A DNA stretch of 64,000 nt. It comes from a virus. The notes under the pieces are model-generated. The model saw only the letters and a program-made list of their open reading frames with translations. It did no database searches and was not told the origin of the DNA. The position numbers and the translations under genes are program-made. Location of the stretch: IMG/VR virus record IMGVR_UViG_3300027801_002650, positions 1 to 64,000 of that record; one strand, written 5' to 3'. Positions 3,247 to 22,005 of this stretch are shown here, in pieces (positions within the stretch are counted from its first letter, which is position 1; each line of letters begins with the position of its first letter).

Positions 3247-3861
3247 TTACGATACATCCTTTATGCCTTTGGAATTTGCACCCGCACCATCACCGCCAGA
3301 TACATCGAAATAGGAATAAGCAAATGTAACTGAAAATTCTTCAATTGCTTCTGCTTGATCAAATCCAAGATCGATTGCACTACAAGTTGTCGGGAAAGCA
3401 TAATAAAAATCGTATGCTCTTAAGTCTTCGCCTGCTTTAGATAACTGGATTACCTTGATAGTGGTAGATGATTGTCCACCTGAGCTATCAGCCAGGTTTA
3501 CAATATTACCAAATGGTTTACCAAATGATTGTATTTGGTGCATCCAAGTTTCTATCTCATGGCGAATCCCGAAATCTTCATCATTGTAGAATGAAAGAGT
3601 CAGATTCTCGTAAGTTCTGATTCCAGGCATTTTTACTTGCCTTCCCAGAAAGTTTACAGGAATTTCGCCAATTGTGGATCCTGGTAATTGAGCATTCTTA
3701 CACAAAAAGGAAACTTTTTGAAATCCTTCTTTCGTCACACCTTCAAGTTTTTCTGGTGCTGTAATTTCCACTTTGTATAAAGAAGGGCGAGCACCAGCAG
3801 CACCAAAATTATTGACGAATGCACTAATGTCGACATTTTTACCGAATTGTCCGTCTGCCAT
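3247..3861 (-). CDS. gp19: tail tube protein (T4 gp19)
   Basis: GARPSLY, LPGSTIG...FLGR, YNDEDF.IR, FPT..SAIDL, IEEFSVTF.Y; lies between sheath and portal. Confidence 0.92.
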   Translation of the reverse strand: MADGQFGKNVDISAFVNNFGAAGARPSLYKVEITAPEKLEGVTKEGFQKVSFLCKNAQLPGSTIGEIPVNFLGRQVKMPGIRTYENLTLSFYNDEDFGIRHEIETWMHQIQSFGKPFGNIVNLADSSGGQSSTTIKVIQLSKAGEDLRAYDFYYAFPTTCSAIDLGFDQAEAIEEFSVTFAYSYFDVSGGDGAGANSKGIKDVS

Positions 3862-3873
3862 TGTCTGTCCTTA

Positions 3874-6000: not shown

Positions 6001-6044
6001 CTTACTCCTATATTTTTGTAAACGTCAGCAGAAGTATTGCCCAT

Positions 6045-6053
6045 TATTTAGGG
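6045..6053 (-). promoter_or_regulatory. late-promoter-like box CCCTAAATA upstream of gp18
   Basis: Variant of the T4 late TATAAATA box in the gp17-gp18 intergenic space. The same motif occurs before gp13 and gp8. Confidence 0.7.
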
Positions 6054-6063
6054 TTTATGGAAT

Positions 6064-7701
6064 CTAGAGCCATTCGGATCCTTTATTTTCAAGCCAATCA
6101 TCATTTCCATCTCTGGCCACGTGTGTGGTTTCTGAAGGAATATCTATTAGGCCATCGTCAATAAAACCGAATGGGGTCAAATTATCCCATGTTTCTTCGT
6201 CAACGTCTTGTAATAAGTTTTCTCTTAGATTTACGTCAGTCAACTCAGCAAAATATCTCTGAGCAACCAACCAAGCAAATGATACGCAACACATTGCAAG
6301 GTCGTCATGTGTCCCAGGAGTTGCCTCCCAAGATTGACCTCTTTGTGCGAAACTATAAAATTCTGTTATAACGTGAACATCCTTTAGTAATATCTTTTCC
6401 TGTTCTATCAGATTCTTAATCGTCATACAACCTATGTTCTTTACTGGACGTGTCATTTTAAGTCCCATCATTGCAGACCTTTTGAAACCACTTGATATTT
6501 GAACGCCATTTCTTCCTGCGTTCCAGGTCATGAGAAGATTCTCATAACCAAGATCGTGTCTCAATATGTCACCAACTTGGGCACCTGACCCATCTATTTC
6601 TACAAGGGTGTATGCGTTATTGTACTGTTTAACTAGGCTATGTATTACATTTGGAAAAACAAGTGGTGTGATTAGGTTGTCTCGGTAAACCACTACCACC
6701 TCGTAAGGAATTTTTGTTATATCAAAAATAATAAATGCTGAATAATCCTTGCCTTTGCCCAAAGCAACATCCACAGTACAAGCATATAATTTGTCTGTAC
6801 TTGGCTCAGCATAAATGGTTAATCCTTGTCTGTTGATCAATGGTTTGGCCCATCTCAATGCCGTGAGGCAATTCGGGTCAACCAACGTTTGATCAGAACC
6901 AATAAATTCAGTCTCAAACTCTTGCCGAAACTGTTCTACTGATGTATTTCGTATAGTATTTTCTTTCCATTCTTCATCTCTTCCTGGAACTTCCGACCAA
7001 TGTACCTGAATAGGCACGAACTGTGAGCGACCATCGATTGCCTCTTTCCACATACGATAGTAGTGGTTCATCCCATAGGGGGTAGAAACAATCATTAATT
7101 TTGTGTTTTTACCGGAAGATATAGTAGGAAAAACAGAACGGAAAAAATCTTCTGCTAGATTATTTTCGACGAATGCAAACTCATCCAAAAATACCAAATT
7201 AAAAGAACTACCTCGAATGGCACTGGAACTAGTAGCAGAACTAACGATTTTTGAACCATTCTCCAGTTCGAAAGAACCTTTATTCCAAACTCCAACACCT
7301 TGTTGAAGCCAAAAGGGAAGATTCTCGTATGCAAGTTGCATCCTTGATAAGAGTTCACGAGAAGTAGCTGCCTTGTTTGCTAACATAGCAACAGACACAC
7401 TCTCATTAAATAGCATGTACCACAACAAATATGCGATTACGGTGACTGACTTTCCTGACTGCCGACCAACCTTACAGATAACAAAACGATTCTCGTGAAA
7501 GGTTTTTACCATTTTCTTTTGAAAACCATATAATGCAAAAGGAACTAATCCTCTTTCTAGATGTACGATTTTTACATAATTTTCAATAAAGTACTCAGGA
7601 TCCCCTGCACACTTAGCAAACTCTGCAATTTGTTCCTTAGTAAATTCTTGTTCTTGATGCTGTGCCTTAATCAGAGGATTATTAACGTACGATTTCACCA
7701 T
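6064..7701 (-). CDS. gp17: terminase large subunit (T4 gp17)
   Basis: Walker A GRQSGKS, Walker B LVFLDEFAF, VSTPYG, FRQEFE; nuclease motifs DVA.G.GKDYS and HDDLAM. Confidence 0.97.
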   Translation of the reverse strand: MVKSYVNNPLIKAQHQEQEFTKEQIAEFAKCAGDPEYFIENYVKIVHLERGLVPFALYGFQKKMVKTFHENRFVICKVGRQSGKSVTVIAYLLWYMLFNESVSVAMLANKAATSRELLSRMQLAYENLPFWLQQGVGVWNKGSFELENGSKIVSSATSSSAIRGSSFNLVFLDEFAFVENNLAEDFFRSVFPTISSGKNTKLMIVSTPYGMNHYYRMWKEAIDGRSQFVPIQVHWSEVPGRDEEWKENTIRNTSVEQFRQEFETEFIGSDQTLVDPNCLTALRWAKPLINRQGLTIYAEPSTDKLYACTVDVALGKGKDYSAFIIFDITKIPYEVVVVYRDNLITPLVFPNVIHSLVKQYNNAYTLVEIDGSGAQVGDILRHDLGYENLLMTWNAGRNGVQISSGFKRSAMMGLKMTRPVKNIGCMTIKNLIEQEKILLKDVHVITEFYSFAQRGQSWEATPGTHDDLAMCCVSFAWLVAQRYFAELTDVNLRENLLQDVDEETWDNLTPFGFIDDGLIDIPSETTHVARDGNDDWLENKGSEWL

Positions 7702-8110
7702 CCTCCTTGACCTGACCTCTTTTCACCAACGATAGCAAATCTTTCGTAGATCCTACTAATACATTTTGCTGGACGTTTGTGGTGTTATTCACAGTTTTGC
7801 TCCGAGCATCATTTACTTTTTCTTTTTGCTGATGTAGAGTCATCAGTTTTATTTGAGCATCAGTGTACTGTGAAAACATAGAACCGAAAACCTCAAATGC
7901 TCTTTGGTGACCAGATGCCTTTGCTAGCTCCAACATTTCACCCATTGCTTCGGTCTGCATTTCCATAGCAGTATACATGTTATCTCTGGAATATTCAAAA
8001 TCAGTTTCTAGTTCTAGATTACCCTTTGGTGCCGGAACGACTTCTACTTCGGTTGATTCTTTTTTAACAGGTAGATCGAATATATGTTTTAGTTCTTCAT
8101 CTTGATTCAT
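7682..8110 (-). CDS. gp16: terminase small subunit (T4 gp16)
   Basis: DFEYSRDN, H.RAFEV and VLVGSTKDL motifs; overlaps the gp17 start. Confidence 0.88.
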   Translation of the reverse strand: MNQDEELKHIFDLPVKKESTEVEVVPAPKGNLELETDFEYSRDNMYTAMEMQTEAMGEMLELAKASGHQRAFEVFGSMFSQYTDAQIKLMTLHQQKEKVNDARSKTVNNTTNVQQNVLVGSTKDLLSLVKRGQVKEDGEIVR

Positions 8111-8120
8111 AACATATCTC

Positions 8121-8543
8121 TCAAATAGTAATACGAGCTGGTGTTACAGAAGATTCTTTAGCGTTTTTATCTGCACAAGCTCTAGTGACAACGTATACAT
8201 ACTGAGTATTTTCTGGAGTAAGTATTTGTACATCTGCAAGATTTTTGCGGAACCATTCCCACGAATGTTCCTCTTCGTATTTTTTCATAGTACACTTGAC
8301 TATTGCAAATACGTCCTCTGGTCTTATCCGTTGTTGAATGCCTGGGTGGCTAGCCATAGTATGAAAGTATCTTGCATACCAATATTCTTTACCATCTTGT
8401 GGCCACGGAGCGTGTTTACTCTGTTCGGCCTGCTTCATCTCTATTTGAGCTGGAACTTTCTTTTCATCAGTAGGTGGTTGTGGGGTCATATTTATTGTGC
8501 ACCCCATCATAAAAAGAGCTAGCACCATTACGAAGTATTTCAT
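8121..8543 (-). CDS. putative lipoprotein
   Basis: MKYFVMVLALFMMG-C signal peptide with lipobox-like Cys15, followed by a Pro-rich linker. Confidence 0.6.
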   Translation of the reverse strand: MKYFVMVLALFMMGCTINMTPQPPTDEKKVPAQIEMKQAEQSKHAPWPQDGKEYWYARYFHTMASHPGIQQRIRPEDVFAIVKCTMKKYEEEHSWEWFRKNLADVQILTPENTQYVYVVTRACADKNAKESSVTPARITI

Positions 8544-8545
8544 AA

Positions 8546-9358
8546 TTATCCTTCAAAAGGTTCTAATTGCGGTACACAAGTCACAGGATTAAAATGCATT
8601 GCGGTATTAAAGAAATTTTGTTCTGTTGTTATTGTGTACGGGTCAAACTGCGTTGCCGACGTCGGTGAAGGTTTTATTTCAATGTTAGAATTAAACCCTG
8701 CAGATGTATCTGTATCTGCTGCCAAGTGTACATCAACGTGTTTAACAATTCCCCTAGGACTTTCCTCAACTTCTGGAAAGAAATGCCCCTTCATTGTAAA
8801 TTGTAAAGTCCAAATAATTGTTCTTGTTCCATCAGGACTGTTTTCGTAAGTGTCCTCATTTGTTACACTATCTAAAACAACGGGTACGTCTAAACTTAAA
8901 TCCATTTTATCAACTAACTTCAAACTGGCAGTAAAATCAGGATGAAAGTATGGCACGATTTGTTCTATGATCTGTTGCCCATCTTCTTGGTTTTTACACC
9001 AGACATGAAGCTCAAACGAAAAATCGTATGGAATACTGCTACCCATAGCACGTATTTGTCCGCCAACATTACTGACGAACTTATGTAATGGATTTATTTT
9101 TCTCGACATATCATACGACATAGTTGACATCATGAATCCCATGCGCGGAAGCATTTGTGATGCCTTCCTTGCTAATTCAGGATCTGAGACCAATCGTTGT
9201 CTATAATAATCTTTGCTTGCGTAAGATATTGGAACCCGTAACCTGCCTATAATCTTTGAATCACTATCATAACGACGCACTTCAATATTATTAAACAATG
9301 TACCAAAATAAGCAACGTATTTTTTTACTAGCCTATGGTAAAGATGATTCCCAAACAT
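8546..9358 (-). CDS. gp15: tail sheath stabilizer/completion protein (T4 gp15)
   Basis: FGTLFNNI, VPISY, LPRM, QIIEQIVPYF.P, R.IIWTL.F. Confidence 0.93.
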   Translation of the reverse strand: MFGNHLYHRLVKKYVAYFGTLFNNIEVRRYDSDSKIIGRLRVPISYASKDYYRQRLVSDPELARKASQMLPRMGFMMSTMSYDMSRKINPLHKFVSNVGGQIRAMGSSIPYDFSFELHVWCKNQEDGQQIIEQIVPYFHPDFTASLKLVDKMDLSLDVPVVLDSVTNEDTYENSPDGTRTIIWTLQFTMKGHFFPEVEESPRGIVKHVDVHLAADTDTSAGFNSNIEIKPSPTSATQFDPYTITTEQNFFNTAMHFNPVTCVPQLEPFEG

Positions 9359-10446
9359 TAGAATTGCCCTTCTGAAAATGGATCGTTCTCCGAAAAGTCG
9401 ATGAAGTTATTAGCAAAATCCTCGAGTTCAACATTCATTGCTGATTCATCAGCATTGTCTGACAGTTCCTCGAGTTCAACCGAAGGAGCATTACCAAGAC
9501 CATCATTTGCGAGAAGGTAGGTAAAGGTAGTATAAGCACCAGATGTTTGCCCATAAATGTGGTCACCCGTAGATAGTCCTGGCGTCATTGGAGCGATGAC
9601 AAGTTTACCAGTGTTGCTATCATGACTAAGAACACGAGCACTTGCAGTATTAGCGTTACTATCGTCCGTTCCAAGCACCGTAGTTTCACGGAGAATTTCG
9701 CCACGTTGAAACTGCCCAACAGCACCACCTTCAATAGTAGTACAGGTTGATTCGACAAGCATCTGAGAGAGTTTATCTTCGATACTATCGATTTCAGGAA
9801 CTCCAGTAATAAATATTTCATTGCTATACTCTAGTAAGTCACACGTCAGCACAAATTGGGGCAATGTTCCTCCTGGATACATTGGAGACTCATGCTCAAC
9901 AAAAGTGATTTGGAAACACTTTTCGTTGTACGGAAAATAAATCAAGTCACCTTCCATTGGACGACGATTTCTGCTTCCATACTGAACGCTATCTTCTAAG
10001 TAAAATTTGTCACCAGAATCATCCTCGTTTACTAGACGATCGATTGTTGATCCTGTTTCTGGTTCAAATAATAATCTATCATATCCATCAGAATCTTCCG
10101 TATTCCATGTCTGGACTGGTGATGCTGAGGTTAGTTCCAACTCATCCCAAGTTTTTCTGGAGCAAGACAATGTAACTCTATCTTTAATATCCAGACCAAA
10201 CTTAGAATAAAACTCGCCTTCGCCTTCAAATCCCTCAGTCGACTCTAACATCATTGCTACGTTGAGTGAGGTCTTGAAAATGAGTTGAGTTGCTTGTCCA
10301 AAGATAGGGTCTTCTCTATTGTAATCTTCTCTAGGCAGGTATATTATATCTCGACCACCGAGAAAAATAGTCTCGGCAGTGATCGATTGAATAAGTCCTT
10401 GTTCCCCAACATCTCTATAGTGGTGTATGTATGGACTTGTTGGCAT
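9358..10446 (-). CDS. gp14: neck protein (T4 gp14)
   Basis: YLPR, SKFGL, RP.EGDLIYFP, FVEHE.P, C-terminal IDFSENDPF. Confidence 0.92.
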   Translation of the reverse strand: MPTSPYIHHYRDVGEQGLIQSITAETIFLGGRDIIYLPREDYNREDPIFGQATQLIFKTSLNVAMMLESTEGFEGEGEFYSKFGLDIKDRVTLSCSRKTWDELELTSASPVQTWNTEDSDGYDRLLFEPETGSTIDRLVNEDDSGDKFYLEDSVQYGSRNRRPMEGDLIYFPYNEKCFQITFVEHESPMYPGGTLPQFVLTCDLLEYSNEIFITGVPEIDSIEDKLSQMLVESTCTTIEGGAVGQFQRGEILRETTVLGTDDSNANTASARVLSHDSNTGKLVIAPMTPGLSTGDHIYGQTSGAYTTFTYLLANDGLGNAPSVELEELSDNADESAMNVELEDFANNFIDFSENDPFSEGQF

Positions 10447-10779
10447 TTATGTCCTAGTTACTGTGATATCCATTGTCGCAGGATCGATAGTAATATCGCA
10501 CGAAATTGTCATTGGGCCAATATCTGGCATGTCCGGCATCCCGGGAATCGATGGAACATCATTGTTGTCAGGATCGACCATGCAGTCAATAAAATGTTCC
10601 ATAGTGTCGCAAGGGTGGCTTGGATCTGAACTTATGATTGTGTCAATCGCTTCCATTGCGTCAGGTGGAACTGCCTTTTTAATCATCTTCATTACGTGGT
10701 CTTTTGCGAGATCTGTTGCCGCATCGGCACAGAGACCTCCAATTACATTAGTCAACAAGGGTATTAATAAGGGTAACAT
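10447..10779 (-). CDS. hypothetical 110-aa protein with amphipathic N-terminus and Asp/Pro/Met/Cys-rich C-terminus
   Basis: Abuts gp14 and the upstream gene; GGAG RBS before the ATG. Confidence 0.65.
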   Translation of the reverse strand: MLPLLIPLLTNVIGGLCADAATDLAKDHVMKMIKKAVPPDAMEAIDTIISSDPSHPCDTMEHFIDCMVDPDNNDVPSIPGMPDMPDIGPMTISCDITIDPATMDITVTRT

Positions 10780-11117
10780 TATTCTCCTTTTTTTGGTTTA
10801 CTTGATGAAATGCGGGCATCGATTTGTTTTAATTTTGCTGTACTTACGTGGACTACAAAGTCTACCAACACAGGCAACAAATCCCTAAAGGATAATGCCA
10901 CTAAAAATGCTATCAAATATTCAAACTCTTTATAAGGTACTAAGTAACTAATCTGAAAAATATAGTAAACAAACAGCATTCCCGAACTCATGTAAACTGC
11001 GTTGCGAAAAAAGTTTGCTAATTTGCTAGTTACGTCATTTACCATTACTAAAACAGAGTAAAGTAGTATAAAGACCATCATGAGAATGAGGTTCATGCTT
11101 TCTATTAAAGTTTCCAT
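10779..11117 (-). CDS. small membrane protein, about 3 TM helices (holin-like topology)
   Basis: Three hydrophobic stretches and a basic C-tail (SSSKPKKGE). Holin function is inference only. Confidence 0.55.
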   Translation of the reverse strand: METLIESMNLILMMVFILLYSVLVMVNDVTSKLANFFRNAVYMSSGMLFVYYIFQISYLVPYKEFEYLIAFLVALSFRDLLPVLVDFVVHVSTAKLKQIDARISSSKPKKGE

Positions 11118-11509
11118 TATTTCAATTCTCCCCCAGAATCAGAAAAGCTCGCTTCTGCCTTTGTTTTCTCCAGAGCCAGTTGTTCTCTTTTCTTTTCCTG
11201 TACTATTTGTTGCAGTTCTTGCGGACTGATATTGCACTGGAATGCTTCTAGAATTTCCTGTGCACCTTTTCCTTGCAACAATAAGTTCAAGGATTTTTCA
11301 TAATTATCATTCGCGTCGTCTAATTCATGGTCCACAATAGTTTGTAAAACAGCATTTTCCGCGACAATGATTTTCTCAATCAATGCGGGAAGTGACATTA
11401 TTGTTATTGTTAACCATAAGATAGCACCCACGAGAATCCATAAAACCTTTGACTGCTTTACCATTATCGCAGGTTCATGCTTATCTGTGTTTGTTTGTTC
11501 TTCTGCCAT
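11117..11509 (-). CDS. single-TM coiled-coil protein
   Basis: VLWILVGAILWLTITIMSL TM segment followed by a helical E/Q/K-rich region. Confidence 0.55.
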   Translation of the reverse strand: MAEEQTNTDKHEPAIMVKQSKVLWILVGAILWLTITIMSLPALIEKIIVAENAVLQTIVDHELDDANDNYEKSLNLLLQGKGAQEILEAFQCNISPQELQQIVQEKKREQLALEKTKAEASFSDSGGELK

Positions 11510-11519
11510 TTTATCTCAT

Positions 11520-11527
11520 TATTTATG
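11520..11527 (-). promoter_or_regulatory. late-promoter-like box CATAAATA
   Basis: Lies in the short intergenic gap just upstream of ORF 11117-11509. Confidence 0.45.
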
Positions 11528-11541
11528 TTAAATTTTTCAAA

Positions 11542-12327
11542 TCACGCAACAAAAAAATCCATCGGTAATTCGAAGTTTAGGGACATTTCCTCATTCAGTA
11601 ACTGCAGATTTTCTTTTGCCTCTGAAAGGATCGCCTCGCCATTCAACGTCACACCTCCTGGTAACGCAACACCCTGTAACTTGATCAAATTTGACCCCCA
11701 CTGGTATCTGAAAAGTTCAGTACAATATTTCTTTAACCACATATCATTCCATACATCGGGGTATGTATCCGGATCAGTTTTCCTGTGACCCACAATAATA
11801 ATGGTATCACCTAATATTATATCTGGTTGGCTTGACGCTGCTCCTGGCCATACGAGGTCCAGATAAAGTCTATCTGTATGTCTATTGAATCTTATGTTTT
11901 GTCCACGACTGTTGAAAAGTTCATCAATCATGTCGAGGTTTTGCATTGATATAGCAAAGTTGTTCATATTACCTTTGGCAAGGTGAGGCATGTCATTCAT
12001 CATATATTGGTATTTGAATGACCACATACCGGAAGTGCCTCGCATACTAGTAGGTGGGAGTATGCGTTCAATGCCTATGTATTCGTCTGAGACTTCTATC
12101 CATTGCCTGTCAATGTCAACTTGGGAGAGTTCATGCTTCCAATAATATCGCGATGATCCGTCAAAATGGTAATCTGACCATTTCTGCAATCCTTCGTCTA
12201 TCCGATCTTCTAGTTGAACGTCGGCGACGTTGATTTCAATGACAGGTGACCCAAGTTTCCTTAGGCAATAATTCTTAAAATCTGTTCTGCTTACTGGTTT
12301 GCTCATGGTGCCCCTAAGAAAGTTCAA
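11542..12327 (-). CDS. gp13: neck protein (T4 gp13)
   Basis: YCLRKLG.PVIEINV, YHFDG, VWND.WLK.Y, QWG.NL.K..GV.LPGGVTLNG. The true start is probably ATG 12306 (MSKPVSR). Confidence 0.95.
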   Translation of the reverse strand: MNFLRGTMSKPVSRTDFKNYCLRKLGSPVIEINVADVQLEDRIDEGLQKWSDYHFDGSSRYYWKHELSQVDIDRQWIEVSDEYIGIERILPPTSMRGTSGMWSFKYQYMMNDMPHLAKGNMNNFAISMQNLDMIDELFNSRGQNIRFNRHTDRLYLDLVWPGAASSQPDIILGDTIIIVGHRKTDPDTYPDVWNDMWLKKYCTELFRYQWGSNLIKLQGVALPGGVTLNGEAILSEAKENLQLLNEEMSLNFELPMDFFVA

Positions 12328-12330
12328 CCA

Positions 12331-12358
12331 TATTTAGGGTTACACGAATCCCTAAATA
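12331..12358. promoter_or_regulatory. back-to-back late-promoter-like boxes (CCCTAAATA on both strands)
   Basis: TATTTAGGG (12331-39), 10 nt, CCCTAAATA (12350-58) form an inverted repeat. One box faces gp13 and the other faces the enzyme island. Confidence 0.7.
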
Positions 12359-12362
12359 GTAC

Positions 12363-13739
12363 ATGAATGATAATGTGATTGAATGGGGATTAAGTTTTGG
12401 ATCCCATGACTCGGCTATTTCGGTATTTATTAATGATCAACTTGTCTTTGCTACAGAAGGCGAAAGATGGTCCGGAATCAAGCACGATAAACAACTCCCT
12501 CCTAACCTCCTCAATTTCCTCAGAACAACTTACGGTAAACCTGCTAAAATATACTATTTTGAGGACCACTACAAAAAGGAACATCGGCGCAAAGAAGCAG
12601 GTCAACCTTCTAAACCGAAACCATCCATCTGGAACGGCAACGATGTCTTTCACTATGATTCCTGGATTCTTACTGGTCATCATCAATCACATGCTAGCTG
12701 GGGATATTATACTAGCCCATTTGATACATGCACCACCCTTGTTATCGACAGTATCGGCGAATGGGATACAATGTCTGTATGGAAATGCGCAAATGGAAAA
12801 ATGACAAAAATATCTGGATGGACTTACCCACAATCATTAGGACTGATGTATACTGCCGCAACCATAGCAGGTGGATGGAGAGGCAACGACGAAGAATACA
12901 AAATGATGGGTGCATCTGCCTTAGGGAATGGTGACAAAGAATACAATATCCTGAAAGAACTATTTGATTCAAAATACAACTTTCACAAAGGATGGGTATA
13001 TGAGGGTGATAGGTTTGAAATTGCTGCTGGTGCCCAGAAACTATACGAAAAGTGGTTACATAACATAACAACGAACATAACTGGCCCCATAGTTTTGACT
13101 GGGGGATGCGCACTCAATGTACGAGCAAACATGCTGATCAAAAATGATCTGTACGTACCACCTGCCCCGAATGATGCTGGATCAGCAATAGGTTGTGTCT
13201 TAGCGCATAAGAAACAAAAACTTGACATTTCTCCCTATCTAGGGTATAATATAATGAAGCCAATTGTTTTAGAGGAAATAGGTAAAGAATTGACAGACGA
13301 CGGCATAGTTGGAGTTGCACATGGTAAATGTGAGTTTGGGCCAAGAGCACTGGGTAACAGATCTATACTAGCCAATCCTAGAAAAAGGCACTGGAAAGAA
13401 AGACTGTGCAAGATAAAGAACCGAAGCAGTTGGAGACCATTTGGTTGCATCGTGAAAGAAGAAGACGTAAATAAGTATTTCTTGCGTGGAAAACCTTCCC
13501 CTTATATGAATACATGCTTCTTTGCCAACCAGAATATGAATGATTTTCCTGTAGAATTATTGCACGAAGATCAAACTGTTAGAGTGCAAACAATAACTTC
13601 TGACCATTACCTTTATCCTCTCCTCAACGACTTCCCAGTCCTAATAAACACGTCACTAAATATAAACGGGAAGCCAATCTGTAATAATGAGCAAGATGTG
13701 GAAGATTTCAAACGGGAAACAGGTATCGCTGTCCTATAA
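12363..13739 (+). CDS. carbamoyltransferase (NodU/CmcH/TobZ family)
   Basis: HDSA, HHQSHA, DSIGEW, SLGLMY, EYKMMG, GGCALN, DAGSAIG, EFGPRALGNRSILA, RVQT, NTSLN..GKPI. Confidence 0.93.
   Translation: MNDNVIEWGLSFGSHDSAISVFINDQLVFATEGERWSGIKHDKQLPPNLLNFLRTTYGKPAKIYYFEDHYKKEHRRKEAGQPSKPKPSIWNGNDVFHYDSWILTGHHQSHASWGYYTSPFDTCTTLVIDSIGEWDTMSVWKCANGKMTKISGWTYPQSLGLMYTAATIAGGWRGNDEEYKMMGASALGNGDKEYNILKELFDSKYNFHKGWVYEGDRFEIAAGAQKLYEKWLHNITTNITGPIVLTGGCALNVRANMLIKNDLYVPPAPNDAGSAIGCVLAHKKQKLDISPYLGYNIMKPIVLEEIGKELTDDGIVGVAHGKCEFGPRALGNRSILANPRKRHWKERLCKIKNRSSWRPFGCIVKEEDVNKYFLRGKPSPYMNTCFFANQNMNDFPVELLHEDQTVRVQTITSDHYLYPLLNDFPVLINTSLNINGKPICNNEQDVEDFKRETGIAVL
13222..13250 (+). promoter_or_regulatory. 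intragenic sigma70-type promoter
   Basis: aaaaacTTGACAtttctccctatctagggTATAAT, a perfect consensus with 17-bp spacer inside the carbamoyltransferase inter-domain linker. Confidence 0.75.
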
Positions 13740-14229
13740 TGAGATTGAGACCAATGATGTCCTAGAAATAGAAAACTTTTGGGTTCCATATTGGAAACAA
13801 CGAAGGTATATTAACTACGACATCAACTATCTTAAAATAGATAGAATGGAGACTTGTTTCATTTATAGAAATCATGGCGAGTTCTGTATGATGTCGGGTG
13901 TTGATGACATAAGCAATTTTATCCCGAATACATACAGAATATTAGTACGGGCAACCACAACACAATATGCCCCCAAAGTCTGGGGAAAGTACGTTGAAGA
14001 AAGATTTTTCTCAAATGTGGTCGCGGGAATCTCGTTAGATTGGTGCTTAGAAAAAGGCAAAGAAGTAGTAATCACAACAAACGTTGATTCCAGAATAACA
14101 AAGGTTGTCAGACGCAGTAAAAGAAAATGGTTACATGAAAGATCAATCGAAAACATATATGGAGTCGATCAGGTTGTTTGGGATATTGATTATGAAAGAT
14201 GCATAGATGATAGAACAATTAGATTTTGA
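13687..14229 (+). CDS. hypothetical protein (possibly GNAT-like fold)
   Basis: Operonic ORF. The fold guess rests only on the alpha/beta pattern. Confidence 0.5.
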   Translation: MSKMWKISNGKQVSLSYNEIETNDVLEIENFWVPYWKQRRYINYDINYLKIDRMETCFIYRNHGEFCMMSGVDDISNFIPNTYRILVRATTTQYAPKVWGKYVEERFFSNVVAGISLDWCLEKGKEVVITTNVDSRITKVVRRSKRKWLHERSIENIYGVDQVVWDIDYERCIDDRTIRF

Positions 14230-14665
14230 CGTTGACATAGAGTTAGTCAAATCTGAAATAAGAAAAATAATACCCGAATACGATGATCAAATACTTTTGC
14301 AGACAGTCAAAGGTAAGGATCCTTTTTATGGAGCTAGAGCAGGCATCGAGTTTACTGAGGGCGAGTTTCAATTCTGTGAGTTCTTTTGGACTGAGATGAC
14401 ATACACTAATTCTATACTGGCAAAGTTTAAATTGGTGAGAAGCAGACTTATGAATCTAAAAAGTAAGACGTGCCTGTCGTATCACAAAGATCCTACGCCA
14501 AGATTTCATATGCCAATCATCACGAACGAAAGTTGTTTTTTAATTATAGACAAAAAAGTACACCACCTCCCCGTGGGTAAGTGTTATATTATCGATAGCA
14601 CTTTACCACACACAGCAGTTAACGCATCCTTCGAGGATAGACTACACATTATAGGAACAATATGA
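14207..14665 (+). CDS. Asp/Asn beta-hydroxylase-like 2OG-Fe(II) oxygenase (cupin)
   Basis: HKD...RFHMPIITN...HTAVNAS...RLHII: HxD...H facial triad plus terminal Arg. Confidence 0.8.
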   Translation: MIEQLDFDVDIELVKSEIRKIIPEYDDQILLQTVKGKDPFYGARAGIEFTEGEFQFCEFFWTEMTYTNSILAKFKLVRSRLMNLKSKTCLSYHKDPTPRFHMPIITNESCFLIIDKKVHHLPVGKCYIIDSTLPHTAVNASFEDRLHIIGTI

Positions 14666-15306
14666 ACGGATCATTTCGCAAAATGATAAAGGAGACGATA
14701 CACGAGTCTCAAAAATGTCAGAGAAACTGGGATCTATCAAAACATATCTCAGAAGAAGACAAACAACTGATCTTAGAATCGGCAACAAATTGCCCCTCAA
14801 AGCAAAACCTCAACTACTATAAATTACACGTTATTGAGGATCGGGGGACTATTGAGAAGATACATGAAAAGACCAAAGGATTTGGTCCAATCTACTTTGA
14901 TTACAATCCAGAACAAAGAGAAGAGAATGCTTATGACGCCAGCAAGTCGGGAGAAATGTATACTAACTCTCAGACCTTGGCTCAATTGCTTTTAGCATTT
15001 ACTAAGAACGATGAAGGGTTGATCGAAAGAGAAAACGATGATGACTATGACGAGGATCGTGCAATGGCAGTTGGTATTGCCGCAGGATACGTCAATGTCG
15101 TTGCCACTCAACTTGGATATGCTACAGGATGTTGCAAGTGTATGGACGGAGATGAGATCGAAGAGATTTTAGGAGAGTCACCTATTTTACTTATGGGTGT
15201 TGGCGTTCCTGATAAGACTCGTAATCGCAGAGAACATCACACTGAGGATTTTGTATTTCCGACTCTTAAGAAAATGAAGAATATCGAAACAGTAATACAT
15301 TCATGA
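14662..15306 (+). CDS. nitroreductase-family flavoprotein
   Basis: QRNWD, CPSKQN, AVGIAAGY...AT.LGYATGCC, LLMGVG.P. Confidence 0.8.
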   Translation: MNGSFRKMIKETIHESQKCQRNWDLSKHISEEDKQLILESATNCPSKQNLNYYKLHVIEDRGTIEKIHEKTKGFGPIYFDYNPEQREENAYDASKSGEMYTNSQTLAQLLLAFTKNDEGLIERENDDDYDEDRAMAVGIAAGYVNVVATQLGYATGCCKCMDGDEIEEILGESPILLMGVGVPDKTRNRREHHTEDFVFPTLKKMKNIETVIHS

Positions 15307-15605
15307 TTCTGACAAATAGTATTATTAAAGTCAAGGGTGAGTTCGAAAGTAAAGAAGAAATAAAAAAGTATCTCTATAGTTTTATAGAAGATCACCCTTT
15401 CCGAAAATACAATCAGGAAATAGCAGACGAATTTGGAGAAGAATTGTTCTCTATGACATTTGTTCCGAAGGACACAGTTGTTTTAACCCAACGTTATCCT
15501 TCTGAAAAACATTACATAATAGCGAAACATTTCAGAGACGACATTATAGAAGTAATGAAAGATATCGTTGAATATTACGAACCAAGTGATCCAATATTGG
15601 TATAG
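15303..15605 (+). CDS. hypothetical protein
   Basis: ATGA overlap with the upstream stop codon; 100 aa. Confidence 0.65.
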   Translation: MILTNSIIKVKGEFESKEEIKKYLYSFIEDHPFRKYNQEIADEFGEELFSMTFVPKDTVVLTQRYPSEKHYIIAKHFRDDIIEVMKDIVEYYEPSDPILV

Positions 15606-15607
15606 TT

Positions 15608-16840
15608 ATGAAATTATGTATTATAGGAGGTAGCACTGCTGGTTGGTGGACTGCTGGATATTTTGAGAAACATATGCCCGATTGGGACATAACATTATAT
15701 GATTCCCCGAATATACCAGGATTAGGTGTTGGCGAATCAACTTTACCGCAACTCAAATGGTGGTGGGAAGAGTTAGGAATACAAGAAAAAGATTGGGTCA
15801 AAGAATCCAATGCTGTTTTAAAATATGGCAACTACAAAGAAGGGTGGAACGCACCCGAATTTGATAAACCATTCGTGACTCGCTTTTGGTTCAACGACGA
15901 TAATAAGTTTGACCAAATGATGGCAGACCCAGCCAACTTTGATAAGAATGGAAAGATAATCGAGGAAAACTTCTATAAGGAATTTGACTCCCCTGACTCT
16001 AGGTCAGATTATGCTTACCATGTTTGCGCAGAATCTGCTGCCGATATAGTAAGACAATCTTGTACACAAACTAAATACATTGAGGAAGAGGTGGATGAAT
16101 TGCCACCAGGTTTTGATTTGTATGTTGACGCAACAGGGTTTAAGCGAAAGTTTGTACAAGATTTTACAAAAATGAGTATTTCAGATTATCATTTTGTGGA
16201 TTCTGCTTGGGTTTGCCCCATGGAGAAATCTCCCAATGATGCTGATGTAACAAAATCAATTGCGAGAAAATATGGTTGGACGTTTGAAGTCAATTTACAG
16301 AATCGCGTGGGCATGGGTTATATACATTCAAGCAGTCACGTTAATAAAGAGGAAGCACTCAAAGAGTTTCGGGAAATTTATGGGGCACTTAATAGAACAC
16401 CCTTGTCCCCACAAGGAGGAGAAAGATTCATAAAGTGGGATCCAATGATCCTACAGAATCCCTGGTCAGACAATGTAGTTGCAATAGGAACATCTTCTGG
16501 TTTTGTAGATCCTCTTGAAGCAACTGCGTTGTTTATGACGCAAAGTGGTATTACGCAATTAGCGAATACTATCAAAAGAGGATACAGCAAGAAATCTTAC
16601 AATCGTGTGATGCGAAGAATATGGAATGACGGACTTAGATTTCAGCTGGCACACTACACTTTGAGCAGTCGAACGGATACACAGTTTTGGCTCGACTCAC
16701 AAAAAGGTGCCGACGAAAAATTTATCTGGGATAATTATCAAAAATACAGTGGCTCATATCAATGGATATTCCCAGATGGGATTTGGTGTCAACTGGGTAT
16801 ATACTTAAATAAAATGGAACACTATGCTCCTAAACTTTAA
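15608..16840 (+). CDS. tryptophan halogenase-family flavin-dependent enzyme
   Basis: IIGGSTAG, GVGEST, AVLKYG (catalytic-Lys position), AYH, DATGF, GFVDPLEAT, HYTLS.RTDT.FW. Confidence 0.88.
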   Translation: MKLCIIGGSTAGWWTAGYFEKHMPDWDITLYDSPNIPGLGVGESTLPQLKWWWEELGIQEKDWVKESNAVLKYGNYKEGWNAPEFDKPFVTRFWFNDDNKFDQMMADPANFDKNGKIIEENFYKEFDSPDSRSDYAYHVCAESAADIVRQSCTQTKYIEEEVDELPPGFDLYVDATGFKRKFVQDFTKMSISDYHFVDSAWVCPMEKSPNDADVTKSIARKYGWTFEVNLQNRVGMGYIHSSSHVNKEEALKEFREIYGALNRTPLSPQGGERFIKWDPMILQNPWSDNVVAIGTSSGFVDPLEATALFMTQSGITQLANTIKRGYSKKSYNRVMRRIWNDGLRFQLAHYTLSSRTDTQFWLDSQKGADEKFIWDNYQKYSGSYQWIFPDGIWCQLGIYLNKMEHYAPKL

Positions 16841-17048
16841 TCACTTAGCTGAGTCAAACTCATCCTACTGGCACCACTTCAAATACTCAGGGTTGTGTAC
16901 AATGTGTGCTGGTGCAGTATTTTTGCTAGGAATAGTTCATACATTTTTTCCGTTTATCGGTGACTGGTGGACAATTAGACTGTCAGAGAAAATATCAAAA
17001 ATAACATATGAACAATTTGGATATAAGAAACTACAAAAAAGAGACTGA
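16824..17048 (+). CDS. small membrane protein (DUF6356-like)
   Basis: HL....SYWHH...hydrophobic...VHTFFPF pattern. Confidence 0.55.
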   Translation: MLLNFNHLAESNSSYWHHFKYSGLCTMCAGAVFLLGIVHTFFPFIGDWWTIRLSEKISKITYEQFGYKKLQKRD

Positions 17049-17964
17049 GGAAATCATTCGTAAGTGGGAAAGAAAAGAGGATTTCACTTATTATACGTCA
17101 GGGTCAACAGGGGTGCCCAAGAAAATAACACATTCCTGGAAATTGATGACAGCTGTTGCTGAGGAGAATTGCCTCTATAATAACTATACAAAGAATGATG
17201 TAATAGTAAACGCATGCCTTCCAGCATCCTCAATCGGATATCCAGTTCTTTCTGTTTTACCTGCTTTGCTGACAGGATGCAGGTTGCAAACAATTGAGTT
17301 TAATCCTTATTCATATCTTGATGTGGTAAAGGAAGCAACTCATATGTTTATTCTTCCAGCAGTGTATAGAGTTATTAAAAAAACTGATAAATGGAAAAAA
17401 TTTGATTGTACTGGGAAAATAGTATCTTGTGGTGCTGACATTGTACCCGAGGGAATCAAGGAAGACGTTTTATCAAAAGGTGCTAAGAAGTTCCATCATT
17501 TATATGGATCGACAGAAGTGCCTCCTGCGATTTCCGACTCAGAAGATGAAAGACAGATCGGCCAAAACCTTTCGCCTTTGATTGATTACTATGTCGAGAA
17601 TGATGAACTGTTTATCAAATGGAAAAGTCAGGAATCATATTGGCAATCTGGGGACTTGGTCGATGAGAACATGAGAGTAACAGGCAGAAAGAAAAATATC
17701 CTAGCATTGAACTGTTCTCGCATACAACCTGAGACCATTGAGAGATACGTACTGGATAACACCAACGTAAATAAATGCCTGCTTACAACCAAAAAAGACA
17801 AGGTATGGATGTATTTTGATGGTGACGAAGAAAATGATGTTGTTAAAGAAAGGGTACAGGAGTGGTATAAAGATTCTCCTGTCACAGTAAAAAAAGTTGG
17901 CAAAATATTAGTCAACAAAATGAATAAACTAATAAGAACCGCACAGTACGAAGGAGTTTCATGA
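17008..17964 (+). CDS. short AMP-binding (ANL) adenylate-forming ligase
   Basis: YTSGSTGVPK, YGSTE, SGDL, GRKKN and a C-terminal Lys motif. Confidence 0.85.
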   Translation: MNNLDIRNYKKETEEIIRKWERKEDFTYYTSGSTGVPKKITHSWKLMTAVAEENCLYNNYTKNDVIVNACLPASSIGYPVLSVLPALLTGCRLQTIEFNPYSYLDVVKEATHMFILPAVYRVIKKTDKWKKFDCTGKIVSCGADIVPEGIKEDVLSKGAKKFHHLYGSTEVPPAISDSEDERQIGQNLSPLIDYYVENDELFIKWKSQESYWQSGDLVDENMRVTGRKKNILALNCSRIQPETIERYVLDNTNVNKCLLTTKKDKVWMYFDGDEENDVVKERVQEWYKDSPVTVKKVGKILVNKMNKLIRTAQYEGVS

Positions 17965-18725
17965 TCGGTTTTATCAATATAGTCAAATGTCTTATTGAAG
18001 ATTATAAGGTGGATAACGCATTTGATCTAGAACAGCTGATTCTCTTAAAACGAGAACATAATATGCAATTCTCGAATATGGGGGAGCCACCTACAAAGTT
18101 CGTTTATTATGACGAAGACCTAAAAGAATATAATATGATATTCATGTATCTCAGAGAAGCAGATATGATTGAGCAATATGTTGATTCCGTTAAGGATTCA
18201 GGGCAAACCAAATTTCCAGAAGAGTATATTGTTTCAAGATATGGCTCAATGTCAGACCTGAATGTTGCGATTAGACCTATCGACATTCCTGACACTCTTA
18301 TTTCAAAGATGAGGGCAACTTTAGAGTTAGGGCACATTAGATGGTCTGACAAAAAGAGATTTGCTAGCATTGATATTTCTACCGAAGATAAGTTTGTTAA
18401 GTGGATAAATACTAATGAGATAGATAAGATTTGGACAACCATACCAGAGGAATTGGATGGTGAAAACAAAGCAGAGCAATTTGAAATCTGGATTAGTCAA
18501 AAAGGAATAGCACTCAACGTTGAGTATCAAGTGAATGCTGATAACGATAACGTGAGATATTCTAAAGACCAAGAACAAATATCAGATGTGGTTCCTGCTG
18601 GTCTTAGTTTATACCAGGACGAACTCAAACAAGTTATTGATCAAGCAAAAACTGCTAAATTTTCTGATGAATTCTTTTCAGCATTAACTGGCGCAGGTGC
18701 AACAGTAGACAAAACACAATTTTGA
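17961..18725 (+). CDS. hypothetical protein
   Basis: ATGA-coupled ORF of 254 aa; no motif recognised. Confidence 0.7.
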   Translation: MIGFINIVKCLIEDYKVDNAFDLEQLILLKREHNMQFSNMGEPPTKFVYYDEDLKEYNMIFMYLREADMIEQYVDSVKDSGQTKFPEEYIVSRYGSMSDLNVAIRPIDIPDTLISKMRATLELGHIRWSDKKRFASIDISTEDKFVKWINTNEIDKIWTTIPEELDGENKAEQFEIWISQKGIALNVEYQVNADNDNVRYSKDQEQISDVVPAGLSLYQDELKQVIDQAKTAKFSDEFFSALTGAGATVDKTQF

Positions 18726-19801
18726 GCAAATATTTTTGTGCATCACCTTTTACCAGAATGACCAGGTCTCCGAATGGTGACCTGAGAACCTGCGTGTATT
18801 CCCCACCTTTAGAGGGAGAATACACAAACATTCTTAGTGCTTTCAAGTCTGACGAAATGGAGACAATTCGCCAAGAGATGAGAGACGGTAAACGAAGACC
18901 TGAATGTGAGTGGTGTTATTTTTATGATGAATCCAACCAATATTCCTGCCGACAAGACATAAACGAACGATACCCAGAACCACCATCTACACAGTTACGA
19001 GAATTAGATTTTGCTGCCTCAAACAAGTGCAACTACATTTGCGTAACTTGTGACGAGTCTGCTTCATCTGGATGGGAACAGAGAAACAAAGAATTTAGAT
19101 TTGCTGCTAATGAAATCAAACATAAATTACCTGCTGACCTATCAGGGATTAGCAATCTAAAACAATTAACAATCATGGGTGGTGAGCCAACTATTGAACC
19201 TTACTACACTAATGAGTTCTGGGATTTGATCGAGAGTAAGACAGACAAGAACTTGTGGTTCCAGATGGTCACAAACTGCTCAGCATTCCCCAGCAAAAGA
19301 TGGATGGATTTTCTCTCGGGTCTTGAGCATGTCAGCATAGGAATATCGTTAGACGGCATAGGAGAAGTCGGAGAGTTCTGCCGACTAGGTTGGAAAGAAC
19401 GACCTTGGCGCAAAAACTTTTTGAAATGGATGAAGTTTTTTGATAGAGGATATGAGCTTGGGTCAAGGCATGACGGACCTTGGATAAATATTGTACTTAG
19501 CAATTATAATATATTATTCAGTGCTAAGACTTTGAAATACGTTTCAGAGTTTGGTATGAGGCATCGAGTCATGCTCACAACTGCCTTTGAACCTGACTAC
19601 CTCTGTCCTGCATATCTTCCCGATAAATTTAAAGAAGAAATAGAGTTAATGGAGTATTTTGACGACAATCATCGAGACTTTGTTATTGACGTGTTAAAAA
19701 CAGGTGAGTACAGCGAACCTGTGTATAAGAAGTTCCAAGACTACACTAAATATTTAAACGCATTTGTGAAAGTACCAGAACCATGTCTACATTTTGTATG
19801 A
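18722..19801 (+). CDS. radical SAM protein with N-terminal twitch/SPASM-like domain
   Basis: CNYICVTC and GGEP; N-terminal CASPF...TC...CEWC. Confidence 0.9.
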   Translation: MSKYFCASPFTRMTRSPNGDLRTCVYSPPLEGEYTNILSAFKSDEMETIRQEMRDGKRRPECEWCYFYDESNQYSCRQDINERYPEPPSTQLRELDFAASNKCNYICVTCDESASSGWEQRNKEFRFAANEIKHKLPADLSGISNLKQLTIMGGEPTIEPYYTNEFWDLIESKTDKNLWFQMVTNCSAFPSKRWMDFLSGLEHVSIGISLDGIGEVGEFCRLGWKERPWRKNFLKWMKFFDRGYELGSRHDGPWINIVLSNYNILFSAKTLKYVSEFGMRHRVMLTTAFEPDYLCPAYLPDKFKEEIELMEYFDDNHRDFVIDVLKTGEYSEPVYKKFQDYTKYLNAFVKVPEPCLHFV

Positions 19802-20931
19802 GTCCATTCGTAAGAATGACGCAATGGTGGAATGGTAATCTTAATACCTGCACTCATTATGGTGAAATGTCTGGTGACGGGACTGACATTGAGAAACAGG
19901 TGTTCATACCCGATGGTAAATATGATAGCCTCGCAGAAGCATTCGAGGGTGAAGAGATGGAAGACCTCAGACAGAAAATGCTGAACGGCAAGAAGCTCGA
20001 GGGATGCCGTTACTGTTATCATTTAGAATCTTTAGGACTCATGAGTTTGAGGGAGAGCATCAACTCCTGCTATGATGTTTCTGCAAGAAAAAAAGAGTTG
20101 AAGGAAATAGAGATTTATCCTTCAAACAAATGCAACTTTAGATGTACTATCTGTAACTCAGAAGCAAGCAGTGTATGGGGGAATACCACAATGCAAACTC
20201 CTGGAAGAATTCCTTCAAATCCATATATGCTTGACGGACTTGGTGATATGAATTTGATTACTATCTCAGGTGGTGAGCCAATTATCATGCCAGATTATGA
20301 TGGAGACTTCTTTGAGGGCAGGTCTACGAAAATGTTCACGATGGCAACCAATAACTCAGTATTTCCTAGTGACCAGTTCTTTGAGTTCTTGGAAAGGTGT
20401 GAGGATATTTTAATATATCTTAGTTTGGACGGTATAGGGGAAGTTGGAGAATGGTGTCGCAAGGGTTTGAAGATGTCGAGATTTGAGAGGAATATGTACA
20501 AATGGCAACACTGGTTTGAGAATAGTAAGTTTGAGAGAAAGGGTAATCCTGATTACAAACTGCGACCACCTTACCTTACTGGTCTGAGAATAATGTATGT
20601 GATGCAACCATATAATATTCTAAATATGTATGAGACTCTAGAATGGGCAGAAGAACACGACATTATTTTAGATATGAGAAATTGCTACTCGCCAGAAAAA
20701 TTGAATGTTGCCTACTTGCCCGATAGTATTAAGAATGATATTATGCAGGAAACAAAATTCTACAACGACGACCATAGAGAGTTCGTTGAGAAAATACTTG
20801 CATCTGCTAAATATGATGAGAGCAGGACAAGAGACTTTATAGAGTATACAAAATACTTGATGGTGCTTGACGAAATACCTAGTCAATCATTGGAGATTTA
20901 TAAAAAATGTTTGGATATAATCTCAGATTGA
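19783..20931 (+). CDS. radical SAM protein with N-terminal twitch/SPASM-like domain
   Basis: CNFRCTIC and GGEP; N-terminal CMSPF...TC...CRYC. Confidence 0.9.
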   Translation: MSTFCMSPFVRMTQWWNGNLNTCTHYGEMSGDGTDIEKQVFIPDGKYDSLAEAFEGEEMEDLRQKMLNGKKLEGCRYCYHLESLGLMSLRESINSCYDVSARKKELKEIEIYPSNKCNFRCTICNSEASSVWGNTTMQTPGRIPSNPYMLDGLGDMNLITISGGEPIIMPDYDGDFFEGRSTKMFTMATNNSVFPSDQFFEFLERCEDILIYLSLDGIGEVGEWCRKGLKMSRFERNMYKWQHWFENSKFERKGNPDYKLRPPYLTGLRIMYVMQPYNILNMYETLEWAEEHDIILDMRNCYSPEKLNVAYLPDSIKNDIMQETKFYNDDHREFVEKILASAKYDESRTRDFIEYTKYLMVLDEIPSQSLEIYKKCLDIISD

Positions 20932-21512
20932 ATGTCGATGATCATGTCTGGACTAACTCCAAAGAACTGTACAGTCCAGAAAGGCATGTCATCATTGACA
21001 AATACAGAGACGGGTGCACAAGAGTTCCTTGTTGCCGGAATGACAATATAGGATTAGAAAACTCTAGTTGGCCATTGCCTGTATTTATTATTTGGGCAAA
21101 TGGTATTTATGTCAACCATCTCATGTGTTTTATGACTGAGGATGAAGCATTACGTTGGGTGCAACAGTGGATTAGAGAGGAAAAGGGTAAAAACTGTGGG
21201 AGATGGAACTTCCCCCACATCCACGCACATAACGTATTCGGCAATGATGTTTCATCTTTTTTACATCCTGTCTTTGATGGAGGCAAATTTATCGAGACAG
21301 TGACAGATGGACAGATAACAAATGAAAACTTCTGGAATGGTGGAACAATGGAAACATATCAAAATCACACCATTTTTAAAACAGATGCGGTAAACTCCTT
21401 TGATGTTATGGATCATTGGTTTGGTGTAGAAACCTACGCCAATGAGTTTATCGAATCCTTTTATGATGAACCCTGGCCAAGCGATTGGGATCTTGATTTG
21501 GTAATGAGTTAA
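20907..21512 (+). CDS. hypothetical protein
   Basis: Operonic ORF of 201 aa, Trp-rich. Confidence 0.7.
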   Translation: MFGYNLRLNVDDHVWTNSKELYSPERHVIIDKYRDGCTRVPCCRNDNIGLENSSWPLPVFIIWANGIYVNHLMCFMTEDEALRWVQQWIREEKGKNCGRWNFPHIHAHNVFGNDVSSFLHPVFDGGKFIETVTDGQITNENFWNGGTMETYQNHTIFKTDAVNSFDVMDHWFGVETYANEFIESFYDEPWPSDWDLDLVMS

Positions 21513-21519
21513 AAAAATT

Positions 21520-22005
21520 ATGGAATTTCAGTTTGAAGTAAGAAGCAAAATATACCCAAGCAAAACCTGGGACACCACCGACCAGTTCTGTATCGATCAT
21601 GATCATTCTATACCAATGCATTATCAAAAACGCATACTTGAAATAGCATCGGAGTATGGCGTTTACAGAAAAATAGAAATGCTAAACGACGGCAAGGGCA
21701 TGAAGTTGTATGCTCGTCTACCTTCCCCAACAATGTTTTCTGAATGGCTAGCCAAAAGAATAGACTATTTCTATGAGGCAAAGAACTCAGAAACAGAAGA
21801 AGACATGGAGGGAGAGATCCCTTATTTTCCAAACTCTTTTCAAAAACGATGCTGGCATTTGTCAAACTTCTCTCCCTTGATTCCCTACGATATTTTTTGG
21901 GAGAATGTGCATAAAGCATTTGACCTCGCAGAACACGAATGCAAACTCAACTTAGACACTTTCAATGTTACAGCAAAAAAGGCATATCATGACCTTTATT
22001 CCTAA
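21520..22005 (+). CDS. hypothetical protein
   Basis: Operonic ORF of 161 aa. Confidence 0.7.
   Translation: MEFQFEVRSKIYPSKTWDTTDQFCIDHDHSIPMHYQKRILEIASEYGVYRKIEMLNDGKGMKLYARLPSPTMFSEWLAKRIDYFYEAKNSETEEDMEGEIPYFPNSFQKRCWHLSNFSPLIPYDIFWENVHKAFDLAEHECKLNLDTFNVTAKKAYHDLYS

Follow-up and report, generated by a model that had tools for sequence, protein, structure and literature searches.

The question raised by this locus is how a large and very unusual gene island, lodged beside the virion genes of a T4-like phage, is switched on. The window analysed here is a stretch of 64,000 nucleotides, the first 64 kb of an 80,839-bp viral contig from IMG/VR (IMGVR_UViG_3300027801_002650; whole-contig coordinates are given as G000). 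The island consists of approximately 35 plus-strand genes (12363–41501, about 29 kb) located between gp13 and the fibre-side genes. Its first gene encodes a carbamoyltransferase (12363–13739, +; Pfam PF16861 and PF02543), and gp13, which encodes the neck protein (head–tail adaptor; 11542–12306, −; identified with tblastn), is read away from the island, leaving a gap of 56 bp (12307–12362). The initial annotation, made from the letters of the DNA, noticed a 9-nt word on both strands of this gap, read the pair as T4-like late promoter boxes, and proposed that the island is expressed together with the virion proteins, possibly from a leaderless mRNA. The explanation that we favour, to which we assign a probability of about 0.6 as a whole, is that the gap holds two divergent late promoters, that the island mRNA starts without a leader at the ATG of the carbamoyltransferase gene, and that the island is not expressed only late. 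This result fixes how one end of the island is probably switched on, and it yields a concrete prediction at the level of single bases, with 5′ ends at 12363 and at about 12325.

Both copies of the word, CCCTAAATA, were confirmed in the gap. The minus-strand copy (12331–12339), the proposed late promoter −10 element of gp13, lies 24 nt before the gp13 ATG at 12306. The plus-strand copy (12350–12358), the proposed −10 element of the late promoter for the leaderless island mRNA, ends 4 nt before the carbamoyltransferase ATG at 12363, as initially described, with GTAC as the intervening nucleotides. The two boxes are separated by a 10-nt spacer (12340–12349). The box was also correctly reported upstream of two further virion genes: CCCTAAATA occurs 44 nt before ATG 6000 of gp18 (tail sheath; box at 6045–6053, −), and ACCTAAATA occurs 49 nt before ATG 57207 of gp8 (baseplate wedge; box at 57257–57265, −). 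Beyond the window, an (A/C)CCTAAATA box is found at G000 70196–70204 (−). In the mechanism that we propose, the gap would hold two independent divergent T4-type late promoters, each consisting of one (A/C)CCTAAATA box with no −35 element, and both would be read by the host RNA polymerase with a phage gp55-type sigma factor, gp33 and the gp45 clamp, as in T4. For gp13, served by the left box, this predicts an mRNA with a 5′ leader of approximately 18–19 nt. From the right box, transcription of the island would begin on the A of ATG 12363 or no more than one base away from it, and the carbamoyltransferase would be translated from a leaderless mRNA with a 5′-terminal AUG and no Shine–Dalgarno (SD) sequence.

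The frequency and the placement of the motif both bear on this proposal. CCCTAAATA is present seven times in the window versus 0.57 expected, and none of 100 shuffled sequences reached seven. The count of the core word CTAAATA is not significant alone (17 in the window versus 11.5 expected; 6 of 100 shuffles reached 17), but its placement is: 7 of the 20 copies in the contig are followed, within 60 nt of their end, by a start on the same strand (binomial P = 2e-7), and in this proximity to starts CTAAATA ranks first among 5,266 control 7-mers of similar abundance in the 80.8-kb contig. The seven genes concerned are gp18, gp13, gp8, gp25, the carbamoyltransferase gene, island gene 2 (ATG 13687) and a radical SAM gene (ATG 19783), and the enrichment of CTAAATA upstream of structural genes that the initial annotation had anticipated is thereby found. 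The copies before the latter two genes are possible internal late promoters. One (13656–13662, +) lies 24 nt before ATG 13687, inside the 3′ end of the carbamoyltransferase gene, and is kept in the related contigs L054–L056 but overlaps conserved codons for S-L-N-I; the other (19746–19752, +) lies 30 nt before ATG 19783. An internal CCCTAAATA also occurs in the sense orientation within an island gene (35963–35971, +), 278 nt before the next start. Across the seven aligned start-proximal sites, a small sample, no conserved −35 element was detected, and information was present only from about −4 of the box to the box end. The T4 box TATAAATA was not enriched (2 copies versus 4.2 expected).

Two observations reduce the force of this evidence. 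All 20 copies of CTAAATA in the contig lie on the local coding strand, but purine-rich coding 7-mers match this 20:0 bias (e.g., AAGAAGA, 25:0), and because some coding-biased 7-mers are equally one-sided we give strand bias little weight and do not use it as a main argument. In addition, Pfam searches identified no gp55, gp33 or gp45 on the contig, which is estimated to be about 50% complete and carries only the virion genes and the island.

The boxes are retained at orthologous positions in related phages. Relatives were collected with a tblastn-confirmed scan for gp13, which gave 26 viral loci, and with an alignment of three carbamoyltransferases, which gave 80 metagenome loci; 75 of the latter were parsed after five that lacked the 5′ end were dropped, and six, including L056, had no automatic start (L056 was read by hand). 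Used as a single query, the carbamoyltransferase found no relative among the viral contigs, and the alignment query found only two already-known contigs there. The gp13/carbamoyltransferase junction is present in nine contigs, namely the window, L009/L049 (one contig), L010, L011/L059 (one contig), L054, L055, L056, L057 and L058. All nine have a CTAAATA box on each side of the junction, and the spacer and leader sequences vary. On the gp13 side the box is CCCTAAATA in all nine; on the island side it is CCCTAAATA in eight and ACACTAAATA in L056. The 10-nt distance between the boxes recurs in L009/L049, L054, L055 and L056 with a varying sequence. In the lineage comprising L010, L011, L057 and L058, the boxes stand in the swapped order, 18 nt apart, and each still faces its own gene, which speaks for two independent directional elements rather than one palindromic site. 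The gp13-side box is kept in all 10 close contigs, including the island-free L008, in which gp13 is 85% identical and is preceded by a single CCCTAAATA and by co-oriented genes, with no island at the site. Among the 75 parsed metagenome loci, a CTAAATA ≤90 nt from the carbamoyltransferase start was found only in L054, L055, L057, L058 and L059, plus L056. Together with gp25, orthologous retention of the box is thus 10/10 on the gp13 side, 9/9 on the island side and 5/5 before gp25. The conservation of the junction boxes fits a long association of the island with the phage, and to this extent the initial description of the island as a domesticated phage module stands.

At the sequence level, the boxes have the features of late promoters: each is a single A/T-rich −10-like box, in sense, before virion genes, without a −35 element and kept at orthologous positions. 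Their initial identification as T4-like late promoter −10 boxes is upheld by these features and by the presence of start-proximal copies before gp18, gp13, gp8 and gp25. The pair in the gap probably represents two T4-type late promoters that point away from each other and belong to the CTAAATA variety, as in the Aeromonas phage Aeh1. In the coordinates given by Nolan 2006 (PMC1524935), the T4 box TATAAATA spans −13 to −6, and the Aeh1 late box has the same core word as here, CTAAATA, starting at −12. The T4-like cyanophages S-PM2 and Syn9 carry NATAAATA before late genes, again with this core word, according to the account in PMC2984593. T4 late promoters (PMC2988020, PMC1524935, PMC7892883) likewise lack a −35 element and have just one A/T-rich box of the −10 type before virion genes, and they are served by the gp55 sigma factor, gp33 and the gp45 sliding clamp. 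Unlike in T4, the box here is CTAAATA with a preference for CC or AC before it, TATAAATA is not enriched, and two boxes lie 4 nt from an ATG; dependence on gp55 and late timing are what we infer for the present phage. All sequenced cyanomyoviruses are stated to have g55, g33 and g45 (PMC2984593), and the phage Melnitz has counterparts of gp55, gp33 and gp45 (PMC9004378). The divergent boxes 10 bp apart and, above all, the fusion of a box to an ATG at a distance of 4 or 5 nt can be viewed as variants of the known T4-type late promoter.

The initial annotation had gone further, deducing from the late box that the island is co-expressed with virion proteins and acts in virion assembly or modification. 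This deduction finds only partial support, as the island itself contains two perfect sigma70 promoters in the sense orientation. Perfect matches to TTGACA-N17-TATAAT occur four times in the contig versus about 0.1 expected (a hand estimate from base composition). One is located inside the carbamoyltransferase gene (13222–13250, +) and one inside an island radical SAM gene (34032–34060, +), and both argue against late-specific expression of the island. The other two (338–366 and 977–1005, both −) precede small early-type genes at the left end of the contig. An extended signature, TTGACATTT...GGTATAAT, is common to the four perfect sites and to an 11-of-12 match at 1072–1100 (+), which is antisense to the neighbouring minus-strand genes. 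The site at 13222 is kept in L054, L055, L056, L058 and L059/L011 (five of six relatives) and in L010 but not in L057, and it overlaps the conserved peptide LDISPYLGYN. If the internal sites are active, every island gene after approximately 13257 would be readable by the unmodified host polymerase, leaving the late box necessary only for the full-length carbamoyltransferase. Judging from these motifs, the island should not be late-only, and the conserved internal sigma70 consensus promoters should also drive most of its genes. Because of these conserved host-type promoters, a role in the virion is not inferable from the 5′ late box, which is not evidence that the island acts on the virion.

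The same promoters raise the alternative that the island is driven mainly from them, early or continuously, that the late box adds little, and that the island lies outside the virion-assembly programme. The excess of perfect sites, the signature that the two sense sites share with the promoters of the early-type genes, and the retention of the 13222 site all point in this direction, as does the presence of distant marine carbamoyltransferase homologues (L071, L073 and L089) behind sigma70-like promoters with an SD sequence. We nevertheless consider this alternative rather unlikely. The start of the full-length carbamoyltransferase gene precedes both internal promoters, with just the late box in front of it, and no sigma70-like site facing the island from inside gp13 was better than 9 of 12. 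Moreover, the late box is kept at all nine junctions, and CTAAATA also precedes two further island genes. The two kinds of promoters are also not mutually exclusive: overlapping early and late promoters are thought to give a middle mode of expression in RB49 and S-PM2, as outlined in PMC2984593. The island resembles this mixed control, described there as 'middle' expression without MotA/AsiA, in having both the sigma70 consensus and late boxes; unlike in RB49 and S-PM2, its sigma70 sites are intragenic and far from the late box rather than overlapping it.

More distant carbamoyltransferase homologues are found inside operons or behind sigma70-like promoters. In L071, L073 and L089, which are marine contigs, the homologue is preceded by TTGAC...TATAAT plus GGAGG. 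In L108, L112–L114, L116, L123 and L126, homologues with approximately 36% identity have a T4-type TTATAAATA 58–62 nt before the ATG, beside an apparent divergent gene. The carbamoyltransferase family thus seems to be wired to differing promoter classes in different marine phages.

Returning to the late promoter proposed for the island, the evidence for a leaderless start is geometric. In four of the five junction lineages, the ATG follows closely on the box, although the intervening nucleotides differ: there are four of them in the window (GTAC), in L009/L049 (GTAT) and in L056 (GAAT), and five in L054/L055 (AATAC). The N-termini of the encoded carbamoyltransferases also differ, reading MNDNVIEW in the window, MIEW in L009/L049 and in L056, and MNDLIEW in L054/L055, which corresponds to the insertion of 0, 3 or 4 codons. 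As the ATG remains 4–5 nt from the box despite these insertions, its position follows that of the box rather than that of the protein core. Upstream of the conserved G-x-S...HD core, L009/L049 and L056 offer no start other than the ATG after the box. At gp25, the arrangement AACCTAAATA-N4-ATG is present in the window's genome and in all four relatives, with the spacers ctgt, catc, caat, aaac and agac, and a search for box-N4-ATG in the records of five relatives returned only the three gp25 sites. In every case with an N4 or N5 spacer, the start codon is ATG and the base before it is C or T, as expected if transcription starts on the A. No GGAG, GAGG or AGGA is present at −18 to −4 of ATG 12363, and the other N4/N5 cases likewise lack an SD core. 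From this geometry, a leaderless start at ATG 12363 is the most likely reading, somewhat favoured over the alternatives taken together.

Several observations weigh against a leaderless start. The T4 and Aeh1 box coordinates given in PMC1524935 place the canonical +1 on the sixth base after the box. This base is the A of the ATG in L054/L055 but lies one base past that A in the N4 cases, which under strict T4 spacing would start on the T of the ATG, so that a 1-nt shift must be assumed. The initial remark that no ribosome-binding site is visible was accurate for the −18 to −4 region, but the feature is neither distinctive nor diagnostic: an SD core in this region accompanies only 19 of 63 crude gene calls (versus a background of 9.5%), and because the other 44 lack one, its absence before the carbamoyltransferase gene adds little. 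A GTG in the same frame, at 12375, corresponds in the alignment to the point where MIEW begins in the relatives and would be usable from a leader of approximately 10 nt. In L010, L011/L059, L057 and L058, the carbamoyltransferase leader is 34–35 nt long, indicating that the leaderless layout is dispensable; the initial suggestion of a leaderless mRNA thus agrees with the spacing in four of the five junction lineages and with gp25 (5/5) but not with this lineage. Finally, the gp25 relatives are close (77–83% identity), which makes their fixed 4-nt spacer weak evidence alone, and gp25 follows a co-oriented gene, which would allow translation from read-through mRNA.

The spacing, the GTG, the general frequency of SD-less starts and the lineage with a leader together favour an alternative in which the late promoters are real and no leaderless mRNA is made from the island. 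The 5′ end of the transcript would fall a few bases inside or beyond ATG 12363, and translation would begin at GTG 12375, or its equivalent in the relatives, with a very short SD-less leader, or would proceed mainly from other transcripts. This scheme appears unlikely to us. It has difficulty with L009/L049 and L056, where MIEW begins at the very ATG that lies 4 nt past the box and the G-x-S...HD core has no other in-frame start ahead of it. It also does not account for an ATG that follows the box through three N-terminal lengths, nor for the constant pyrimidine before the A, which fits a start on that A.

If the leaderless start is accepted, a tentative extension is that CCTAAATA-N4/5-ATG (about 16 nt) constitutes a portable unit of late promoter plus start codon in an uncultured clade of marine T4-like phages. 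Within it, the gp55-type −10 box and a 5′-terminal AUG would jointly define where both transcription and translation begin, and the unit may serve the core baseplate gene gp25 as well as the gene that opens the 29-kb radical-SAM island, itself an acquisition. The cultured cyanophages S-RIM2, ACG-2014b and S-SRM01 differ in that their gp25 boxes (CCTAAATA, TCTAAATA and CATAAATA) lie 20–23 nt before the ATG, compared with 4 nt here. No box was found before gp25 in a T4-like coliphage or in Aeromonas phage PX29, and HTAAATA-N4-5-ATG was not commoner in five cultured genomes than its reversed control (14 versus 19). The classic phage example of a leaderless mRNA is that of lambda cI transcribed from PRM. 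Leaderless bacterial mRNAs, a class that GeneMarkS-2 models (PMC6028130; see also the review PMC9031893), similarly have a −10 box just before the AUG and no SD sequence; unlike in those, the promoter here would be of the phage late type, and a phage sigma factor would read it. In our literature search, no paper connected leaderless mRNAs to T4-like late promoters or to cyanophages. If the leaderless reading is true, T4-family late transcription would be coupled directly to SD-independent translation in some marine phages, and leaderless late mRNAs would be a T4-family feature found in no paper searched for here. It would also affect gene calling, because starts would be pinned to promoter boxes, and the deduction of auxiliary gene expression from sequence. 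Foreign operons could then be plugged into the late programme without a ribosome-binding site, which changes how easy their domestication seems.

The 9-bp inverted repeat formed by the two boxes could instead be a single palindromic element, such as an operator bound by a protein, a hairpin in RNA or DNA, or a scar left by recombination when the island inserted. Pairing of the arms would give a stem of 9 bp closed by a 10-nt loop (the 56-nt gap folds at −11.7 kcal/mol), four lineages preserve the N10 spacing, and the island-free L008 has only the gp13-side box. We regard this reading as very improbable. The fold is unremarkable (z = −1.8; equalled by 10 of 200 shuffles), the hairpin is not followed by a T-run, no terminator-like site was found in 12307–12362, and there were no Rfam matches at E up to 1 in 11900–12800. 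The same word also occurs singly before gp18, gp8 and gp25, and the L010/L011 lineage has its arms swapped and 18 nt apart, each still facing its own gene. A search of the viral contigs for TATTTAGGG-N10-CCCTAAATA gave four loci, of which only L049 (the L009 contig) is related; of the three other contigs with this arrangement, L048 and L050 carry extended palindromes, and none has a gp13/carbamoyltransferase junction. An origin of the motif pair by chance in A+T-rich sequence, as the non-significant count of CTAAATA might suggest, is effectively refuted by the enrichment of CCCTAAATA, the placement of CTAAATA, and conservation over nine junction contigs and five gp25 loci.

Contigs assembled from RNA libraries were also compared with the locus. 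Six RNA-labelled runs were found, and three metatranscriptome runs from two studies (X10 and X16; X12), together with a DNA run (X6), were compared over 3000–22000. Among the matches listed (32 of 111 pieces), contigs from the RNA runs cover gp18–gp20, gp13 and parts of the island. The gp13 pieces span 11527–12267 (X10) and 11977–12313 (X12), with ends 46 nt apart. Those of the island span 14528–15397, 15881–16666 and 18143–18706 in X10, 18051–18520 in X12, and 16177–16614 and 20182–20645 in X16. One gp18 contig stops at 6024, and two others continue. The X10, X12 and X16 sequences are assembled contigs, which show no starts, strand or timing and may include DNA carry-over, and no weight is placed on them for or against the proposed transcription starts. 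Low cover over 12510–13143 was not used as evidence.

The contig has a G+C content of 40%, and a megablast search of GenBank phages found no close relative. On the minus strand, Pfam matches define a T4-like virion module comprising the portal protein gp20, tube gp19, sheath gp18, terminase gp17/gp16, gp15, gp14 and gp8, and past the end of the window the matches are to gp6, gp25 and gp5. In tblastn comparisons, gp13 has approximately 42% identity to annotated neck proteins of Sinorhizobium phage phiM12, Methylophilales phage Melnitz and Stenotrophomonas phages. In the island, the carbamoyltransferase comes first, and the other Pfam matches include an Asp/Arg hydroxylase-like protein, a nitroreductase, a tryptophan-halogenase-like protein, an AMP-binding enzyme and approximately 16 radical SAM matches.

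Further observations concern the surroundings of gp13. Its leader, TTTCTTAGGGG(T/C)ACC-ATG (12307–12330), is near-invariant over five contigs, more so than the spacer between the boxes, with one change in L049 (TTTATTAGGGG), and it probably carries the SD-like AGGGG of gp13. Directly downstream of gp13, a box variant of the ATAAATA type found in T4 and cyanophages, AACATAAATA (within 11510–11541, −), ends 11 nt before the ATG of a 130-aa gene (11117–11509). In L008, the closest gp13 relative, positions 1–4000 contain five co-oriented genes beside gp13 with no tblastn similarity to the fibre-side genes of the window, which indicates that the region upstream of gp13 is hypervariable.

Elsewhere in the island, ACCTAAATA-N5-ATGAATGAT occurs at 27723–27745 (+) inside a PP-loop (QueC-like) gene, where the in-frame ATG and the next two codons are those at the island start (ATGAATGAT at 12363). 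It may be a trace of a duplication of the promoter plus start, or it may have arisen by chance. As the start of the PP-loop gene it was rejected, because it falls after the PP-loop motif of that gene.

Among the virion genes, a RuvC-like gene (1152–1700, −; weak Pfam match to PF02075, with a GIDYS motif close to its beginning) starts within the 3′ end of the portal gene or immediately behind it and contains an in-frame CCCTAAATA at 1531–1539. The 41-nt gap after gp8 (55331–55371) holds a G+C-rich hairpin, GGGGCAG-GTGA-CTGCCCC (− strand), without a T-run, which is the sole strong stem noticed between virion genes. Downstream of gp8 (55372–57207) on the minus strand are open reading frames of 2,061, 945 and 1,102 codons. 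The gp7 position, flanked by gp6 and gp8, is occupied by one minus-strand open frame with 3,545 codons, which extends from 57269 to 64000 and on to G000 67906.

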